Shown piece by piece: positions 3,142-38,183 of a stretch of 64,000 nucleotides of DNA. Within the stretch, counting starts at the first letter, position 1. Each line of letters begins with the position of its first letter. Below the pieces are notes generated by a model. It saw nothing but the letters and a program-made list of their open reading frames with translations, was not told where the DNA came from and did no database searches. The position numbers and the translations under genes are program-made. The stretch comes from a virus. Its lineage: Duplodnaviria > Caudoviricetes. Location of the stretch: positions 5,169 to 69,168 of the IMG/VR virus record IMGVR_UViG_3300022589_000019; one strand, given 5' to 3'.

Positions 3142-4647
3142 TCACGCCTTATGACCGCCAATCTGGGAATTGCGGTCTTTGGCTGTTGCCCCTTCCTCAA
3201 GGTTCATACCTTTAAGGATTGCATTCTTTCCGAATTTCTTTTTTATATCAAGCATTGCCCGTTGCATTTTCTTTTCACGAGCAAGTGCCTCTTCCTCTTC
3301 TTTACGTTTAGGTTCCAGCTCTTCGTAGTCCGTGAACAATGTTAATTGTTCAGCCTGTTCTGTATTTTTGACTTCAGCCCCCGGTATCAGCTTACACGCA
3401 GCAAGCGTGATACGGCGGACAAGTAAATTCTTATCCACAATGCGGTCAAAAAGCTCCATAACGGCATCAACTATAAGACGAGTAGATGAGGTCTGTCTTT
3501 CAAGATTAGCCGTTCCGTGGGCGTGTTTTGGCACTTTACGACCGTAATGGTCAGTGGTAACTGGACCATTGTATTTTGCACTGATTTTTGGGTCTGTGAG
3601 GTTCTCTATATCATAACCTATGGTCAGCACCATTTGATTGGTCACAAGTTCCTTCTCGACAAGATCCAACACAAGCAGTTCCGTCATTTCACGGGTTACG
3701 AGTTTGGCTTTATCAAACGCATAGGGGCATTGGAGAATCTGCCCTGAACTTAGGCTATTGGTGCTTGGTTTGTATGCCTTAACCTCTGCGATGGTACAAG
3801 GTTCCCAACCCCAAGCGTGGTCGATGAGGAGTTCTGCGTTTACACCGAAGAGCTTATATAGCAAATCCTCATTATGCACAGAGCAACGTGCAACATCGCC
3901 CATCGTGTACATTCCGTTAGCCTCAAGTTTAGTCGCGTATCCTTTTCCAACCCGCCAGAAGTCCGTCAGCGGCTTGTGAGACCACAATTTCTCTCGATAT
4001 GACATTTCATCAAGTTCTGCGATACGAACACCATCTTTATCTGCGGGGATGTGCTTTGCGGTGATATCCATTGCAACCTTTGCAAGATACATATTTGTTC
4101 CGATTCCCGCTGTTGCGGTAATGCCGGTCGTTGTTAGGACATCCTTGATAAGCATCATAGCGAAGTCGTGTGCGGTGCCTTTGTAGCTGGAGAGGTAGTG
4201 GGTAATATCGATGAACACCTCATCAATGGAATATACATGAATATCCTCTGGAGCGATATATTTGAGATACACCTTGTAGATTTCGGTGCTGCGTTCCATA
4301 TACAACGCCATCTGCGGTGGTGCAACGATATAATCAAGTTCAAGGGAGGGGTTGCTCTGCAAATCTGGATTATGCGAAGATTGCCCCGTGAACTTTCGCC
4401 CCGGAGCTTTCCTCAAACGTTCTGCGTTTACTTCTTTTACTCGTTGTACGACTTCAAATAGCCTTGCTCTGCCGGAAACACCATACGATTTCAGTGATGG
4501 CGTAACCGCAAGGCATATTGTTTTTTCTGTTCGGCTCAAATCCGCAACCACAAGGTTTGTAGTCATTGGATCGAGACCGCGCTCCATGCATTCGACCGAA
4601 GCGTAAAATGACTTGAGGTCGATGCAAAGGTATGTGCGTTCAGCCAT
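3142..4647 (-). CDS. Y-family error-prone DNA polymerase (ImpB/MucB/SamB, UmuC/UvrX-like)
   Basis: YLCIDLKSFYASVE, YSIDEVFID, TATAGIGTNMYLAKVAMD, DFWRVGKG motifs; C-terminal KKFGKNAILKG. Confidence 0.95.
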   Translation of the reverse strand: MAERTYLCIDLKSFYASVECMERGLDPMTTNLVVADLSRTEKTICLAVTPSLKSYGVSGRARLFEVVQRVKEVNAERLRKAPGRKFTGQSSHNPDLQSNPSLELDYIVAPPQMALYMERSTEIYKVYLKYIAPEDIHVYSIDEVFIDITHYLSSYKGTAHDFAMMLIKDVLTTTGITATAGIGTNMYLAKVAMDITAKHIPADKDGVRIAELDEMSYREKLWSHKPLTDFWRVGKGYATKLEANGMYTMGDVARCSVHNEDLLYKLFGVNAELLIDHAWGWEPCTIAEVKAYKPSTNSLSSGQILQCPYAFDKAKLVTREMTELLVLDLVEKELVTNQMVLTIGYDIENLTDPKISAKYNGPVTTDHYGRKVPKHAHGTANLERQTSSTRLIVDAVMELFDRIVDKNLLVRRITLAACKLIPGAEVKNTEQAEQLTLFTDYEELEPKRKEEEEALAREKKMQRAMLDIKKKFGKNAILKGMNLEEGATAKDRNSQIGGHKA

Positions 4648-5035: not shown

Positions 5036-5482
5036 TTATTTGAGATATTCGGTTATACGCTTTAGTAGCAATTCGTATCTTTTCTGCGTATCGGGATTCT
5101 TGCCGCAGTACCTTCTATCCATTTGCTCGTTAGGCTCATAAGAAACGGGGATATTGTATAAATCGAACTGCTCAATAGTTAGGTCGATATAGTGACCATC
5201 AATCTTATTGAAGTAGTGTGTTCCGCCACCATCAACACGAATTCTGTGAATGGTGCCGCCGAACATATCATAAACAAGCATAGCTGTTATAGCACACTGA
5301 CCGTAGGATGGATCGTTTGGAACCCACTCAACCTGGCAAGAAGGATAGGCAGACTCTTTGCACCAGCAATTTCTCAAAAGAGCATATAAATCGTCCAATG
5401 TATTTAGCTTTGGATTGCCGGCTTTCTTACGGCTCAATGAACCGTATTCTTCACCATAATAACGTCGCATAGTTTCCTCCAA
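5036..5482 (-). CDS. YunG-like protein (putative Cys-His-Asp papain/transglutaminase fold)
   Basis: W...SAYP...GQCAITA...THYFN...YIDLT pattern. Confidence 0.7.
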   Translation of the reverse strand: MEETMRRYYGEEYGSLSRKKAGNPKLNTLDDLYALLRNCWCKESAYPSCQVEWVPNDPSYGQCAITAMLVYDMFGGTIHRIRVDGGGTHYFNKIDGHYIDLTIEQFDLYNIPVSYEPNEQMDRRYCGKNPDTQKRYELLLKRITEYLK

Positions 5483-22192: not shown

Positions 22193-22451
22193 AGTAGACC
22201 TCCTTGAAAATAGTAACCATAGAAACCAAAGAAACCTTATCTCCAATTGACAGAAACCCTATCTACTATAGGCTGTAAATAGGATAAGGTATTCGACAGC
22301 ATTCGCAACGCTAATGCAGTATACTACATTATATCACAAATTTTGAATTAAGTCTATACCCACATCAGAATTTCTCGTAAAAGCGTAAAAATTTATGCGA
22401 ACGCAGAAATTTTATCCGCATAGCCTCTGCACTCTGTATCAACTGATCACT

Positions 22452-22608
22452 GGTAGCTCAACGGCGTGTAGCGGAAAACTGAATAATACAGCTGCCTTTT
22501 GAGCGGGTTTGCTGCAATCCGAAGCGGAGTTTTCCGTTAGGACTGCGGTTCTTTCTTCACGCCTTTGCAGCACCTAAAGCCTCCGTTTCGAGAAATCGAG
22601 AACGGAGG
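22452..22608 (+). ncRNA. Putative structured 5' leader of the sigma-like gene, ending in an RBS-sequestering hairpin
   Basis: cctccgtttcga-gaaa-tcgagaacggagg (22580-22608) contains the GGAGG RBS; further helices tgctgcaa/ttgcagca and ggcgtg/cacgcc. Confidence 0.5.
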
Positions 22609-33238: not shown

Positions 33239-34021
33239 ATGTTTGAAAAAGTAAACCCTGCCCACCCCGACAAGGTGGCAGACAGAATTGCCGGGGCCAT
33301 TGTTGACCTGGCATATGCTGTCGAAGAAAACCCGAAGGTAGCTGTCGAGGTTCTTATCGGCCACGGCACATGCCACGCAATCATTGAAACAACTGCTGCC
33401 ATCGATAAAGTGGATGTAGCAAAAGCTATCCACCGCATCGGTGGCAATCTTATGTGTAACATCGTTGTTGTTCCCCAGGATACGCACCTTGCCCGTAATC
33501 AGGAAGATGCCATTCGCTGTGGTGATAACGGCATCTTCAAGGGTGTGCCTATGACAAAGGAACAGATGACCCTCTCCGGCATTGCAAGAGATATCTATGC
33601 TGTGCATCCTTATGATGGTAAGTACATTATTAACGGAGACAACCTTGTTATCTGTCAGAGCAACGTTGATACAAACGAACTCAAACAGCTCTATCCCAAG
33701 GCACAGATTAACCCGCTCGGAGATTGGACCGGCGGAACAGACGTTGATACTGGTGCTACAAACAGAAAGCTCGGCAGTGATATGGCCGATTCTGTTACAG
33801 GTGGTGGACTTCACGGCAAAGACCTCTCCAAAGCAGATGTCAGCGTAAACATTTACGCTTGGCTTGAGGCACAGAGAACCGGCAAGACTGTCGAACTCTG
33901 CTGTGCTATTGGTGATGAGACCGTTGGGGGCATTCCTTATGAGAAGATTGTCGAAACGGCTCGAAAGTTTATCACCTCCGTAGGCGGCTTTGAGAAATTT
34001 GCGGAATGGGGGCTGGTTTAA
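33239..34021 (+). CDS. metK: Compact phage S-adenosylmethionine synthetase
   Basis: EKVNPAHPDKVADRI, GDNGIF, DTGATNRK, GGGLHGKDLSKADVS; about 260 aa, shorter than cellular MetK. Confidence 0.88.
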   Translation: MFEKVNPAHPDKVADRIAGAIVDLAYAVEENPKVAVEVLIGHGTCHAIIETTAAIDKVDVAKAIHRIGGNLMCNIVVVPQDTHLARNQEDAIRCGDNGIFKGVPMTKEQMTLSGIARDIYAVHPYDGKYIINGDNLVICQSNVDTNELKQLYPKAQINPLGDWTGGTDVDTGATNRKLGSDMADSVTGGGLHGKDLSKADVSVNIYAWLEAQRTGKTVELCCAIGDETVGGIPYEKIVETARKFITSVGGFEKFAEWGLV

Positions 34022-35256
34022 TGCTTATTGAAAACAAGAAACTGACCGACCTTATTCCTGCTGACTATAATCCCCGTAAGGACTTAAAACCCGGTGACGA
34101 CGAATATGAAAAGCTGAAACGCTCCATTGAGCAGTTCGGTATGGTTCAGCCGGTCATTTGGAATAAAACTACGGGACGTGTGGTTGGCGGTCATCAGCGT
34201 TTGAAGGTTCTCATTGATATGGGACACACCGAAACCGAGTGTGTTATAGTCGAAATGGATGAAGCACAGGAAAAGGCTCTCAACATCGCTCTTAACAAAA
34301 TCAGCGGTGATTGGGATAAGGATAAATTGGCACTGCTTATTTCCGACTTGCAGGGCGAAGACTTTGACGTAACCCTTACGGGTTTTGACCCTCGTGAAAT
34401 CGATGACATCTTCAAGGCAACACTCCAGGAAGGTGTCAAAGAAGATGACTTTGACGTTGAGGCAGAACTGCAAAAGCCTACCTTCTCCAAGGCGGGCGAT
34501 CTTTGGATGCTCGGCAGACACCGCCTGGTTTGCGGTGACAGCACCAAGGCTGACACATTTGAGCTTCTGATGAACGGTGTCAAGGCAAACCTTGTCATCA
34601 CCGACCCACCCTACAACGTCAACTATGAAGGTTCGGCAGGCAAAATTAAAAACGATAATATGGCAAAAGAAGCGTTTTATCAGCTCTTGCTTGATTCCTT
34701 CACTAACACCGAAAGAGCAATGGCTGATGACGCTTCTATTTATATTTTCCATGCGGACACCGAGGGTTTAAATTTCCGCAGAGCCTTTGAGGATGCCGGC
34801 TTCTATCTTTCCGGCACGTGCATTTGGAAAAAGCAATCCCTGGTGCTTGGCCGTTCTCCTTATCAGTGGCAGCACGAACCCGTCCTCTTCGGTTGGAAGA
34901 AGAAAGGCAAACATCAGTGGTACACCGGCCGTAAGGAATCCACCATTTGGGAGTTCGACAAACCCAAGAAGAACGGTGACCATCCTACGATGAAACCTAT
35001 CCCTCTGTTGGCGTACCCCATTATGAATTCCTCAATGAGCAACACGGTTGTGCTTGACCCCTTTGGCGGTTCCGGTAGCACCTTGATTGCTTGTGAACAG
35101 ACAGAACGCATTTGCCACACCATCGAGCTGGATGAGAAGTTCTGCGATGTAATCGTAAAGCGTTACATTGAGCAGGTCGGCTCTTCCAAGGATGTAAAGG
35201 TTCAGCGTGATGGTTTAACTTACAGCTTTGACGAAGTTGGAGGTACAAATGAATAA
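34021..35256 (+). CDS. ParB-N-terminal domain fused to beta-class N4/N6 DNA methyltransferase
   Basis: YNPRK...VVGGHQR; TDPPY; HPTMKP; VLDPFGGSGST. Confidence 0.93.
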   Translation: MLIENKKLTDLIPADYNPRKDLKPGDDEYEKLKRSIEQFGMVQPVIWNKTTGRVVGGHQRLKVLIDMGHTETECVIVEMDEAQEKALNIALNKISGDWDKDKLALLISDLQGEDFDVTLTGFDPREIDDIFKATLQEGVKEDDFDVEAELQKPTFSKAGDLWMLGRHRLVCGDSTKADTFELLMNGVKANLVITDPPYNVNYEGSAGKIKNDNMAKEAFYQLLLDSFTNTERAMADDASIYIFHADTEGLNFRRAFEDAGFYLSGTCIWKKQSLVLGRSPYQWQHEPVLFGWKKKGKHQWYTGRKESTIWEFDKPKKNGDHPTMKPIPLLAYPIMNSSMSNTVVLDPFGGSGSTLIACEQTERICHTIELDEKFCDVIVKRYIEQVGSSKDVKVQRDGLTYSFDEVGGTNE

Positions 35257-37552
35257 CTTAACGCTCGGCAGCTTGTTTGATGGCTCGGGCGGTTTTCCTT
35301 TAGGCGGCTTGCTTTCCGGTATCACCCCTGTGTGGGCATCGGAAATCGAGCCGTTTCCTATTAGGGTTACCACCAAGCGGCTGCCTTTTATGAAACACTA
35401 TGGTGATATCTCCACTATGGATGGCGGGAAAATTGAACCCGTGGATATTATCACCTTCGGCTCTCCTTGCACCGATATGTCAGTGGCAGGTAAACGAGCC
35501 GGACTGGAAGGACGACAATCTGTGCTGTTCTACCAAGCCATCCGCATCATTAAAGAAATGAGGAGTGCCACCAATGGTAAATACCCAAGATACATCGTGT
35601 GGGAGAATGTCCCCGGCGCCTTCTCCTCAAACGGCGGAGAAGATTTCAAAGCCGTCCTCGAAGCGGTCATCGACATCGCAGAGCCGGACACCGAGGTGCC
35701 TATGCCTGAAAAAGGCAGATGGCCTTATGCAGACAGCTACATGGGAGACAGATGGAGCGTTGCTTACCGAACTCTCGATGCTCAATACTGGGGAGTCCCC
35801 CAACGCAGACGCCGCATCTACCTTGTCGCAGATTTTGCAGGCAAAGGTGCCCCCGACATATTATTTAAGTCCGAGGGCGTGTCAGGGTATTCTGCGGAGA
35901 GCTTCCGTGCGTGGCAAAGAGCTGCCGGAAGTGCTCCGTGTTGCATTGGAGCGTCAGGCTTCGATGGATACAACGGAGACTTAACGGGAGAGGTTTCTTC
36001 CACTCTCGGTGTAAACTGTGGTATGTCCACTGGTCGCAACGGCATCGTGCTAAACGACCAGGGCGGCAATCGAATGGATATCACCGATGAGGTAACCGCA
36101 ACCCTTCGAGCCGAAGCACACCACCCTCCGTGCGTGTTGGAATCAGCCGGGTTCTGTACCGAGCATTCAGCTAAAAGCCGTAGCATTGGTTACGAAGAGG
36201 AAACTTCTCCGACGCTCCGTGCCGGTGTTGTCCCGGCAGCAGTTGCCTTGGAAAACCATCCTGCCGACAGCAGAGTAACCATTGCGGATGATGATAAGGT
36301 ACAAACCCTAACCTCCCGTATGGGTACAGGTGGTGGCAATGTACCTCTCGTTATGAAAATCCGCTCCGGCTGTGAAGGCGGTGGAAAAGGCGCTTTGATT
36401 CAGGAAAACAAGTCCGCAACACTTTCTTGCAATAACGACCAAACCTTGTTTGAACCGTGTAGTTGGGATGGCGGACAGACCGTTTCTACCTTGACCGCAC
36501 ACAACGCAGGCGGAAGCCAACGAATGCCAGACAAGAACCACTTCAACTGTGTTCTGCAGGCTTATGGAATCTGTTCCAAAGATAGCAACGCTATGAAATC
36601 TGCCAATCCTCACAGTGGTATTTATGAGGCTGATACCTCTCGTACTCTTGATGGCAACGGTGGAAACCCCGGTTGCAACCAGGGTGGCATTGCTGTGGTA
36701 TGTGTCGACCAAGGCGGAGGTAAAAGTTCTTGCAGTGTCAGTGAGGATGTTTCTCCCACGCTTGCTTGTACCCACGGCGGTGAACCTGCGGTTTGTGTTA
36801 AGGGCGGAACAATTGTAATCGAAGGCAACGGCACCCGCCCCTCTCACCAAGGAGATGGTTATAAGGAGTCCGATGTGATGTACACCCTTAACACCGTTGA
36901 CCGCCACGCTGTCTATGCAATGACAACGGGCAGTTTCACACAGGTGTCTCAAGATACCTCCCCAACGCTTATGGCGAGAGACTTTAAAGACCCAAATGCT
37001 GTATGTTACGGCATCGGCAGAGATGCATTTAACCAGGGCAAAAACGCACAGTTCACTCCTTCGGTCTCTGAAGAGACACAACCGACACTGGTTGCCAAAG
37101 GCCCCGGTGCTGTTGCGACTCCTTATGGTTTTGACCCTTCTGCAAGTCGTGATGTTGGGCAGTACTTCCTTGAAGATTGTGGCAACACACTTGTCAACGG
37201 ATCTTGCCCCGGACACCATAACGGTGTTGTCGAGCCGACCTATACGGTTCGTAGATTAACTCCTACCGAATGTGCAAGACTTCAGGGCTTCCCCGATTGG
37301 TGGTGTGATAACCTCGGCATCGAAGAACCCACTATGGATGACATCCGTTACTGGTACGATGTGTTTGAGACCCACCGCAGAATTGTCGGCGGGTCCACAA
37401 AACCCAAGACCCTCAAGCAGATAAAGAAGTGGCTCACCGACCCGCATTCCGATGCTGCGGAATATAAGATGTGGGGCAACGGTGTGGCACTGCCTTGCGT
37501 GTTCTTTGTGCTTTCGGGCATTGTTTACTATAACAGCCTCAACGAAGGCTGA
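35249..37552 (+). CDS. C5-cytosine DNA methyltransferase with greatly expanded repetitive variable region
   Basis: SLFDGSGG, FGSPCTD, VWENVPG, QRRRRIY, RRLTPTECARLQGFP, WGNGV; about 12 'TL' repeats. Confidence 0.93.
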   Translation: MNNLTLGSLFDGSGGFPLGGLLSGITPVWASEIEPFPIRVTTKRLPFMKHYGDISTMDGGKIEPVDIITFGSPCTDMSVAGKRAGLEGRQSVLFYQAIRIIKEMRSATNGKYPRYIVWENVPGAFSSNGGEDFKAVLEAVIDIAEPDTEVPMPEKGRWPYADSYMGDRWSVAYRTLDAQYWGVPQRRRRIYLVADFAGKGAPDILFKSEGVSGYSAESFRAWQRAAGSAPCCIGASGFDGYNGDLTGEVSSTLGVNCGMSTGRNGIVLNDQGGNRMDITDEVTATLRAEAHHPPCVLESAGFCTEHSAKSRSIGYEEETSPTLRAGVVPAAVALENHPADSRVTIADDDKVQTLTSRMGTGGGNVPLVMKIRSGCEGGGKGALIQENKSATLSCNNDQTLFEPCSWDGGQTVSTLTAHNAGGSQRMPDKNHFNCVLQAYGICSKDSNAMKSANPHSGIYEADTSRTLDGNGGNPGCNQGGIAVVCVDQGGGKSSCSVSEDVSPTLACTHGGEPAVCVKGGTIVIEGNGTRPSHQGDGYKESDVMYTLNTVDRHAVYAMTTGSFTQVSQDTSPTLMARDFKDPNAVCYGIGRDAFNQGKNAQFTPSVSEETQPTLVAKGPGAVATPYGFDPSASRDVGQYFLEDCGNTLVNGSCPGHHNGVVEPTYTVRRLTPTECARLQGFPDWWCDNLGIEEPTMDDIRYWYDVFETHRRIVGGSTKPKTLKQIKKWLTDPHSDAAEYKMWGNGVALPCVFFVLSGIVYYNSLNEG

Positions 37553-37838
37553 TAATATAGTCTTCCGAATCGGTTATGTACTTTTCGTAATCGATTCGGG
37601 TGACGGCGTTACTGCTGTGGTGGTAACACATTCTTCCTGCCCAACCCAGGAAGCAAATGGTGCCGTCCGGTTGGAGGGACATAATATCATCTACAGGGCG
37701 TTCGGTTGGTTTTGCTCCATCCCCGTAGGTGATACCCTCCAATTCCGCATCGCTCATAAAGCGAAAACGGATAGCGTTGGTTTTAAGAAGGATATAAACC
37801 TTCTTGTCGATTCCAATGAGTTCTTTGATTTTGCGCAT
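37539..37838 (-). CDS. Orphan 99-aa protein under SAM-riboswitch control
   Basis: RBS AAGGAG (37848-37853); immediately downstream of the riboswitch terminator; 14-bp convergent overlap with the C5 MTase. Confidence 0.75.
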   Translation of the reverse strand: MRKIKELIGIDKKVYILLKTNAIRFRFMSDAELEGITYGDGAKPTERPVDDIMSLQPDGTICFLGWAGRMCYHHSSNAVTRIDYEKYITDSEDYIISLR

Positions 37839-37878
37839 AATAAAACGCTCCTTTAAGTTTATTACCTAAAGAGAGCGT

Positions 37879-37911
37879 AAAAAAGCAATCCTATCGTCAC
37901 GACAGGATTGC
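37879..37911 (-). terminator. Riboswitch intrinsic terminator
   Basis: 12-bp stem gcaatcctgtcg-tga-cgataggattgc followed by U6 on the minus strand. Confidence 0.9.
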
Positions 37912-37925
37912 AGAGTATCTCATAT

Positions 37926-38012
37926 AACCCTATCGTTCAAGCTTTGGCACCTTACCTTTCGGCAGGTTGTCGGCGGTCACAGGGCTTGTCCCTCACGCAC
38001 TCTTTATAGGTT
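37926..38012 (-). ncRNA. SAM-I (S-box) riboswitch aptamer, P4-less variant
   Basis: AACCUAU-A-AAGAG-UGCG-UGAGGGACAAGCCC-UGUGA-CCGC-CGACAACC-UGCC-GAAA-GGUA-AGGUGCC-AAAG-CUUG-AAC-GAUAGGGUU; compensatory pseudoknot CAAG/CUUG. Confidence 0.88.
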
Positions 38013-38018
38013 GCATAT

Positions 38019-38047
38019 AGGATAGCACAAAAATCTCGATTTGTCAA
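38019..38047 (-). promoter_or_regulatory. Sigma-A promoter driving the riboswitch
   Basis: TTGACA (38042-38047), 17 bp spacer, TGc-TATCCT (38019-38024); predicted start at the first aptamer bases. Confidence 0.85.
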
Positions 38048-38183
38048 TGAGACGTGTACATTACACAAATAAAACTACAGAATAAGGCTACATATTCTAC
38101 ACCGAATAATGTGCGAATTAACTGGATATATCTCGTACTTGACGGTAATATGTGACTACCAAAAAACAAAGGAGGTCATAGTA

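Follow-up and report, generated by a model that had tools for sequence, protein, structure and literature searches.

An unnamed protein family tied to a predicted SAM-I riboswitch in Ca. Heliusvirales-type gut phages

Background

In the S-box regulon of the Firmicutes (RF00162; the yitJ, metI and metK leaders of B. subtilis) a SAM-I aptamer is joined to a promoter-proximal terminator/antiterminator OFF switch, and expression takes place at low SAM. The locus described here lies in a 64,000-nt stretch of viral DNA (the window; positions 5,169 to 69,168 of IMG/VR record IMGVR_UViG_3300022589_000019). It resembles these leaders in having an aptamer that scores above the gathering cut-off and a switch that is predicted to act in the same way. 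It differs from them in three ways: its cargo, borne by phages and mobile elements, is the gene of a small unnamed protein and not one of methionine, cysteine or SAM biosynthesis or transport; its aptamer has no P4 stem; and the switch and the gene move together as a unit of about 537 nt.

The morons of lambdoid phages are autonomous promoter-gene-terminator units inserted between phage genes. Like them, the present unit has its own promoter, is oriented opposite to the flanking late-region genes and is precisely present or absent among collinear relatives. Unlike them, it is apparently gated by a metabolite riboswitch, it also occurs outside phages and alternative alleles of it occupy one site.

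Two further systems invite comparison. An antisense-acting S-box riboswitch has been described for the ubiG-mccBA operon of C. acetobutylicum (PMC2566862; survey in PMC9943018). There, as in the window, a SAM riboswitch faces the gene of a SAM-dependent enzyme, being placed convergently at its 3' end, and low SAM permits antisense transcription; our locus is alike in this last respect by layout only. It differs in that a conserved protein ORF fills the read-through transcript and in that the cassette mostly occurs without a convergent methylase. In cyanobacteria a glutamine riboswitch controls gifB, the gene of a small glutamine synthetase inhibitor, IF17 (PMC6212724). In both cases a metabolite riboswitch would control a small non-enzymatic protein in place of an enzyme or transporter, and gifB may serve as a model for the action of the present protein. 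This is an analogy only: gifB is under an ON switch and has a known target, whereas the present switch is of the OFF type, and the two proteins have no sequence or fold relationship.

Among the carriers of the cassette are temperate phages of the Ca. Heliusvirales type, whose lineage is highly prevalent in the gut. C5 methylases have been reported in 67% and SAM synthetases in 58.9% of Ca. Heliusvirales genomes (PMC11283538), and with such frequencies a SAM-sensing cargo in this lineage bears on methyl-donor supply, DNA protection and lysogen fitness. The word riboswitch occurs nowhere in that description. A homologue with 67% identity to the window protein is encoded by the Ca. Heliusvirales Ruminococcus phage NatCom_28274 (PV036439.1), where it is annotated as a hypothetical protein (XTK83981.1). 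Its position is the same as in the window, convergent with a methylase-type gene (742 aa), with a DNA methyltransferase gene adjacent and the large terminase gene close by. What is new here is, as judged from sequence, a riboswitch-tied protein family in phages of this type.

The riboswitch and its expression platform

The unit is encoded on the minus strand and begins with a sigma-70-like promoter (38019..38047) made up of TTGACA, a spacing of 17 nt and an extended -10 element, TG-TATCCT (10/12 matches, TG present). Both the -35 and the -10 boxes are kept across cassettes, in an alignment (A2) in which the entire leader is homologous in 20 of them. The promoter is followed by a SAM-I (S-box) aptamer of 86 nt (37927..38012), matched to RF00162 by cmscan at 38012..37927 with 53.1 bits against a gathering cut-off of 44.4 (E 2.1e-9). 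The match covers positions 1-108 of the model except for those of P4, which are deleted, and the canonical four-way junction with P4 is not found in the window aptamer. This short form is common to all cassettes, and the 'long' matches read the antiterminator/terminator as P4.

The expression platform (37879..37937) consists of a terminator and a competing antiterminator and is conserved in A2. The terminator is a 12-bp hairpin (37911..37885) followed by U6, with a predicted stability of -18.3 kcal/mol against -15.7 kcal/mol for the alternative antiterminator hairpin, in which the 3' strand of P1 is predicted to pair with the 5' arm of the terminator. This is, by its predicted folds, a classical terminator/antiterminator OFF switch. 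In the L037-L039 leader the U-tract is degenerate, which counts against the explanation that we favour below. The same applies to a second predicted hairpin (37845..37878), part of the minimum-energy fold, which pairs a CUCUUU tract with the AAAGGAG ribosome binding site and suggests an extra layer of control through sequestration of that site. Its pyrimidine tract is conserved, and 76.5% of its cells are paired, close to the 73.3% in shuffled alignments.

The stretch that separates the riboswitch from the convergent C5 methylase has a single ORF, that of the 99-aa protein (37539..37838), an intact frame of 99 codons read from 37838 to 37539, with AAAGGAG placed 9 nt ahead of its ATG. A sequence-only reading of this DNA had noted a good ribosome binding site and a single gene downstream of the riboswitch, and both observations hold.

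The same reading proposed that the protein is tied to SAM and made only when SAM is scarce, and suggested looking for SAM riboswitches upstream of its homologues. A SAM-I riboswitch was found just upstream in 46 of the 49 loci that could be tested (GTDB 19/21, IMG/VR 15/15, metagenomes 6/6, extra paralogues 2/3, fused forms 4/4), and the members that lack it are L014, L050/L021 and L053. The link is kept in proteins as little as 38% identical, whether the setting is a phage, an island or a chromosome. As the family nearly always travels with its own SAM-sensing switch, the protein would be expected only when SAM is scarce; the conserved association and the predicted OFF platform support the proposal.

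The cassette as a mobile unit

Promoter, riboswitch, terminator, ribosome binding site and ORF together make up an insertable cassette of about 537 nt (37525..38061) that is missing as one block in close phage relatives. In the empty sites L065 and L067 homology to the window ends at 37524 and restarts at 38062, with 6 nt between. Joints skipping from 37524 to 38140 were also seen in two runs, with sides of only 25 nt, and are superseded by these empty-site loci. Among 73 contigs sharing a related methylase the cassette is present in seven and absent from 66, while L081/L082 have an allele of 42% identity at the same site, 220 nt from the methylase.

With its own promoter and its precise presence or absence among collinear relatives, the cassette is a moron. 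It is best read as a self-contained and optional one, belonging to temperate Ca. Heliusvirales-type phages with gut Oscillospiraceae and Ruminococcus as hosts, and found also, on the same best reading, on islands and in further mobile settings in Clostridia.

The 99-aa protein and its family

The protein had been described as an orphan, which proved wrong. Its homologues form 237 clusters at 90% identity (E<=0.01) and 259 representatives at 50% identity, and family loci were located in GTDB genomes (21) and in IMG/VR (15). Judging by these sequences the family is widespread, and unnamed, among phages and mobile elements of gut Clostridia. It was present in one of 401 sampled genomes of the phylum, that one being the centre genome itself, and no homologue is encoded by the PLSDB plasmids. 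The neighbourhoods are diverse and resemble mobile elements (integrase, Y-family polymerase, UvrD-like helicases, RNase T, Macro, LemA), and one metagenome locus with 38% identity is chromosomal and non-phage. Purifying selection is clear from the dN/dS values of about 0.05-0.2 (median 0.19, close pairs 0.04-0.1), and intact frames are retained at 38-45% protein identity.

Members measure about 96-100 aa and share near-invariant residues (F27/A31/E34/G35...D83/Y87). The window protein (pI 6.1) contains 15 acidic residues and 14 basic ones, the median net charge of the family is 0 and no transmembrane segment was found in the protein, which is predicted to be cytoplasmic and near neutral, with a single alpha/beta domain. 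The near-invariant E34, D83 and Y87 could equally well form a catalytic site, and no fold or profile match was found that would favour binding over catalysis; both observations count against a binding module.

The earlier statement that the protein belongs to no recognised family was borne out, as Pfam, PHROGs, NCBIfam and PADLOC gave no family match. Pfam, PHROGs and NCBIfam searches with the protein, and Pfam and PHROGs searches with all 113 aligned members, returned scattered sub-threshold matches only, and SH3_15, RraB and NifT were rejected as such. Membership in a family of methionine, cysteine or SAM synthesis, salvage or transport was likewise not found with Pfam, NCBIfam, PHROGs and PADLOC or by sequence match to the PDB, where the best profile match, endoglucanase D (E 0.057), is not meaningful.

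The structural comparison that had been proposed was carried out with an AlphaFold model of good confidence (pLDDT 89, pTM 0.79), which shows a small alpha/beta domain and has no convincing match among solved structures (best Foldseek E against the PDB 0.66; best VIA-align Z 3.1 against 48,161 chains). BFVD gave weak matches only, to uncharacterised phage proteins. The ESM Atlas returned unnamed clusters of its own and a lead to RegA at 0.84, below the level that the tool regards as meaningful.

Some members are fused to a 2-hydroxyacid dehydrogenase, an FGase-type amidohydrolase, a rubrerythrin or a recurrent C-terminal domain without known match, and the riboswitch is retained in all four fused forms examined. 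The partners are too varied to give a function and were rejected as Rosetta stones. The N-terminal fusions keep the start methionine of the partner, which suggests loss of a stop codon, and the rubrerythrin, dehydrogenase and amidohydrolase fusions could be uninformative accidents of this kind. In the two-domain forms P0149, P0180 and P0239 the second domain has the same order of secondary-structure elements in a low-confidence model (that of P0180 is poor, pLDDT 64), and a search for relatives of the second domain of P0180 returned only that domain.

Proposed role of the protein

The explanation that we favour, at about even odds, is that a mobile SAM-switched cassette has the 99-aa gene as its cargo and that the product of the gene serves in SAM shortage as a stand-alone, probably non-catalytic binding module. 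With SAM bound, P1 would form and with it the terminator, and transcription would halt ahead of the ORF; with SAM scarce, the 3' strand of P1 would pair with the 5' arm of the terminator and the ORF would be transcribed. The constant companion of the gene appears to be the switch rather than any neighbouring gene, and the domain seems to act alone, although now and then another recurrent domain follows it or it is joined to an unrelated enzyme; it is for these reasons that the protein is read as such a module. Its target would be a widely conserved host component or a small molecule of the SAM economy, and it may act by sparing SAM, by boosting SAM or by coping with under-methylation, so helping the element or the lysogen through the shortage. 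In the phage lineage there may in addition be read-through that enters the methylase gene in antisense.

More tentatively, the family could be a new class of SAM-shortage effector, spread by phages and mobile elements, that directly binds and retunes a core component of the methyl-donor economy; candidates are MetK, one of the major consumers of SAM, and an enzyme of SAM-dependent restriction or modification. If true, it would be the SAM counterpart of the riboswitch-controlled factor that inactivates glutamine synthetase, and no auxiliary gene gated by a riboswitch would have been described before it in a major order of gut phages. The sequence-only reading had also considered a new SAM-metabolism factor and an inhibitor of SAM-dependent restriction or methylation, and the results favour neither of these over the other.

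Alternative explanations

The convergent neighbour of the cassette is a C5 cytosine DNA methyltransferase of 774 aa (35228..37552, plus strand; PF00145, E 8.4e-38), whose stop at 37552 overlaps the 3' end of the 99-aa ORF by 14 nt and whose last nine or so codons fall within the cassette. The main output might then be the RNA itself, with read-through at low SAM running antisense to the methylase and lowering a SAM-consuming enzyme. The overlap speaks for this, as do the conservation of the convergent layout in phages whose methylases are only 54-62% identical and the precedent and logic of PMC2566862 and PMC9943018. No intrinsic terminator was found in the 200 nt past the ORF stop in the window or in most phage loci, which is weak evidence of absence because the scan was crude. 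However, the methylase is absent near most non-phage loci, and there are at least 20 loci in which the cassette has no methylase downstream. Since the ORF is in addition under strong purifying selection, with frames that survive deep divergence, and the L081/L082 allele is separated from its methylase, antisense action is at most a lineage-specific extra and is unlikely as the main function.

A similarly low probability is given to a back-up anti-restriction or restriction-alleviation factor, made when low SAM leaves the element's own methylases unable to protect its DNA. Insertion next to a DNA methylase has happened repeatedly (in the window type, in the L081 allele and in L044, which has a ParB-methylase downstream on the same strand), carrier phages invest in methylases and MetK (PMC11283538) and some non-phage loci resemble defence islands. 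Nevertheless, many loci have no methylase nearby, no PADLOC model matched, and the pI of the window protein and the median charge of the family do not show the strong acidity of a DNA mimic of the Ocr/ArdA type, which was rejected.

It is rather improbable that the protein is a DNA- or RNA-binding regulator that links the SAM status of the host to induction, replication or late-gene translation. The protein is small and phage-borne, it may dimerise, the two-domain forms repeat its order of secondary-structure elements in a low-confidence model, and the language-model lead points weakly to translational regulators of the T4 RegA type. Against this, no HTH, RHH or RegA profile matched (PF01818 had no Pfam hit in the 113 members), RegA is not among the fold matches listed, the Atlas score is under the meaningful level, and the gene is also found in a chromosomal, non-phage setting.

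We regard as improbable a guard function, in which phage SAM lyases flip the switch and the protein then aborts the infection. Some phages are known to encode SAM-degrading enzymes with which SAM-dependent defences are overcome (bioRxiv 10.1101/2023.02.27.530186), and prophages and islands are carriers of the cassette, in some cases beside UvrD/NERD-like and PDC-S48-like genes. The protein lacks toxin-like features, though, its stable in-frame fusion to housekeeping-type enzymes would be unexpected for a toxin, and plain methionine starvation would trigger the switch too.

The sequence-only reading also suggested a partner of the compact phage MetK, and that the protein is dedicated to this role is now very improbable: MetK lies 3.5 kb from the cassette in the window, and the two closest phage relatives tested have it too, but no MetK homologue was found in the 100%-complete proviruses G407 and G408, which both have the cassette, nor near most non-phage loci, where the methylase is lacking as well. 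The C5 methylase and the phage MetK are, by this distribution, apparently neighbours and not obligate partners.

Implications and RNA-library data

Few pointers to gaps in metabolite biology are as reliable as riboswitch-controlled genes without known function, and this pointer is unusually clean, as a single ORF stays with a single SAM switch through deep divergence and in phages, islands and chromosomes alike. The question is also directly testable, since nature provides isogenic variants that have or lack the cassette. The P4-less aptamer and its compact platform would moreover offer a ready-made, portable SAM-responsive expression module.

The trace of the gene in RNA libraries is too thin to establish transcription, the runs searched being almost all DNA metagenomes from animal faeces: it is one 166-nt contig over 37689-37845 (depth 2.3) in a single RNA-seq run, in which another contig covers the methylase.

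A predicted SAM-responsive cassette

On the minus strand of the window a sigma-70-like promoter (38047..38019, TTGACA-17-TATCCT with a TG upstream) is followed by a SAM-I aptamer (38012..37927; 53.1 bits against the Rfam cut-off of 44.4, lacking the P4 positions), a 12-bp terminator that contains GC and is followed by U6 (37911..37879), the ribosome-binding site AAAGGAG 9 nt 5' of the ATG, and a 99-codon ORF (37838..37539). The source is a 69 kb IMG/VR virus record with a completeness rating of 100%. The ORF lies tail-to-tail with the gene encoding a 774-aa C5 cytosine methylase (PF00145, E 8.4e-38), which it overlaps by 14 nt.

Folding of the leader is consistent with the usual S-box logic. 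The 3' strand of P1 has two possible partners, the P1 5' strand and the 5' arm of the terminator, so transcription of the ORF is expected only at low SAM; the alternative hairpin is predicted at -15.7 kcal/mol and the terminator at -18.3 kcal/mol. SAM binding would favour the terminator, whereas scarcity would allow read-through into the small gene. The sequence-only reading had the protein made only when SAM is scarce, and folding and comparison now predict an S-box terminator switch of that kind. In an alignment of 20 leaders the promoter, aptamer, terminator and ribosome-binding site were homologous in every one and showed stronger conservation than the protein. The P4-less aptamer was common to all 20, and the longer Rfam matches are explained by the antiterminator/terminator being taken for P4. 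From these comparisons it is near-certain that transcription of a single conserved protein gene is under the control of a SAM-OFF switch.

After the terminator U-tract and ahead of the start codon (37845-37878, minus strand), a CGCUCUCUUU tract and the AAAGGAGCG ribosome-binding site form a predicted hairpin in the minimum-energy fold. It suggests translational control as a second layer; its pyrimidine tract is conserved, and in the covariation check 76.5% of cells were paired against 73.3% in shuffles.

Protein family and riboswitch association

The sequence-only reading had described an orphan 99-aa ORF with a good ribosome-binding site downstream of a SAM riboswitch, which stands except for the word orphan. 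A word-indexed search gave 237 clusters at 90% identity, nearly all of them 96-100 aa long and all lacking a Pfam domain, and HMMER, run exhaustively over 1.84 billion representatives, gave 259 at E<=0.001. Loci were confirmed by tblastn in 21 GTDB genomes (Oscillospiraceae, Ruminococcus, Caproiciproducens and others) and on 15 IMG/VR contigs, and some genomes hold two or three copies. The reading frames are intact and pairwise dN/dS has a median of 0.19 (0.04-0.1 for close pairs); judged from these sequences, the ORF codes for a real protein and is kept by purifying selection. The family has no name in any library searched. Among annotated GenBank phages a homologue occurs only in Ruminococcus phage NatCom_28274 (Ca. 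Heliusvirales), where the gene order is that of the window and the product is labelled hypothetical.

Upstream SAM riboswitches, proposed earlier as something to look for in homologues, were found at 46 of 49 testable loci. The RF00162 matches lie 90-175 nt upstream on the strand of the small gene, in 19/21 GTDB loci, 15/15 IMG/VR loci, 6/6 further metagenome loci, 2/3 additional paralogues and 4/4 fused forms examined. One of the six metagenome loci is chromosomal (38% protein identity, beside sigE/spoIIGA-type genes and a tRNA). The exceptions are locus L014 (57% identity, different upstream region) and two copies of ~30% identity in Lachnospiraceae bacterium P6A3. Across the loci compared, the SAM riboswitch is the constant companion of the family. 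In the P6A3 bacterium, L053 (1177-1815, ~30% identity, no riboswitch) is a distant two-domain member whose neighbours in a gene run include an HD_4 phosphohydrolase and a NERD-domain protein; the domain may have here an ancestral setting or an alternative one.

Mobility of the unit

Eighty IMG/VR contigs were fetched with the C-terminal 250 residues of the methylase. Of these, 73 extend 600 nt or more downstream, and the small gene with its leader is present in only 7 of the 73. In two close relatives lacking it (L065 and L067; 86% identity over the methylase C-terminus) the sequence matches the window as far as 37524 and again from 38062, with 6 nt in between; therefore 37525-38061 is a discrete insertion. 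The unit also provides the last codons of the methylase. Relatives without the cassette have a different methylase end, and therefore the insertion has remodelled the C-terminus of the enzyme; the last ~9 codons and the stop (37525-37552, plus strand) lie inside the inserted cassette.

Two further contigs (L081 and L082) have a leader 70% identical and a protein allele 42% identical to those of the window, with the same left boundary. Their cassette (3472-3975) is 220 nt from a methylase whose C-terminus is 76% identical, and looks like the result of an allele exchange or of a further acquisition at a hot spot. Elsewhere the cassette is found with integrase, Y-family polymerase, GIY-YIG, RNase T-type, Macro, LemA and UvrD-like genes. 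Among 401 sampled genomes of the phylum the family occurs in the centre genome only, and no PLSDB plasmid carries the cassette. Movement of the whole unit between elements is near-certain.

The SAM-I riboswitch class and the moron concept are already known. No publication connecting such a phage gene with a SAM riboswitch turned up in literature searches, and the description of the Heliusvirales, with a C5 methylase in 67% and a SAM synthetase in 58.9% of genomes, makes no mention of a riboswitch (PMC11283538).

Structure and fused forms

AlphaFold2 (113-sequence alignment) modelled a beta-alpha-beta-beta-beta-alpha-beta-alpha domain (pLDDT 89, pTM 0.79), and F27, A31, E34, G35, D83 and Y87 are almost invariant in the family alignment. 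No convincing match was obtained with Foldseek against the PDB (best E 0.66), VIA-align against 48,161 chains (best Z 3.1) or a profile against PDB sequences (best E 0.057), and BFVD gave only weak matches to uncharacterised phage proteins; this does not prove a new fold. With a pI of 6.1, close to neutral, and without a hydrophobic segment, the protein is neither a DNA mimic nor a membrane protein.

In-frame N-terminal fusions have as partners a 2-hydroxyacid dehydrogenase (L055 4001-5293) and a rubrerythrin (L060 3001-3939), both keeping the partner's own start Met, and a C-terminal fusion has an FGase-type amidohydrolase (L056 4001-5080). All three loci are chromosomal or tmRNA-adjacent, each fusion being downstream of the same SAM-I riboswitch, and the cassette may be a portable promoter that makes the genes downstream of it SAM-responsive. 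Another fusion carries a recurrent second domain of no recognised family, with a similar order of secondary-structure elements in a low-confidence model.

Possible function

No conserved operon partner was found 3' of the ORF among the loci compared. The small protein would act alone, on a target common to many Clostridia. This target is probably part of the SAM economy or of what follows from it, methylation and restriction, because the one invariant associate of the family is the SAM sensor. We give an even chance to the overall reading of a SAM-gated mobile unit with a stand-alone protein acting there, its functional part being a guess. The riboswitch-controlled IF17, a small inhibitor of glutamine synthetase (PMC6212724), is a working analogy, not a relative.

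Competing with this reading, the protein could be a back-up anti-restriction factor or a life-cycle regulator, or the cassette could be a guard against SAM-degrading phages. An antisense effect of the cassette transcript on the methylase has precedent for a SAM riboswitch (PMC2566862, PMC9943018); the cassette-methylase adjacency is limited to one phage lineage, and such an effect can at most be a lineage-specific extra. The MetK partner proposed from the sequence alone is now unlikely, as two complete related proviruses carry the cassette without a MetK homologue.

The compact MetK-like protein of the window (33239-34021, 260 aa) matches only PF00438, the S-adenosylmethionine synthetase N-terminal domain (E 5.7e-10), and has copies 77-82% identical in the two closest related phage contigs. 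The window also holds, at 22424-22577 on the plus strand, a strong match (127 bits) to RF02960, the DUF2800 RNA motif, which is cis-regulatory and has no assigned function.
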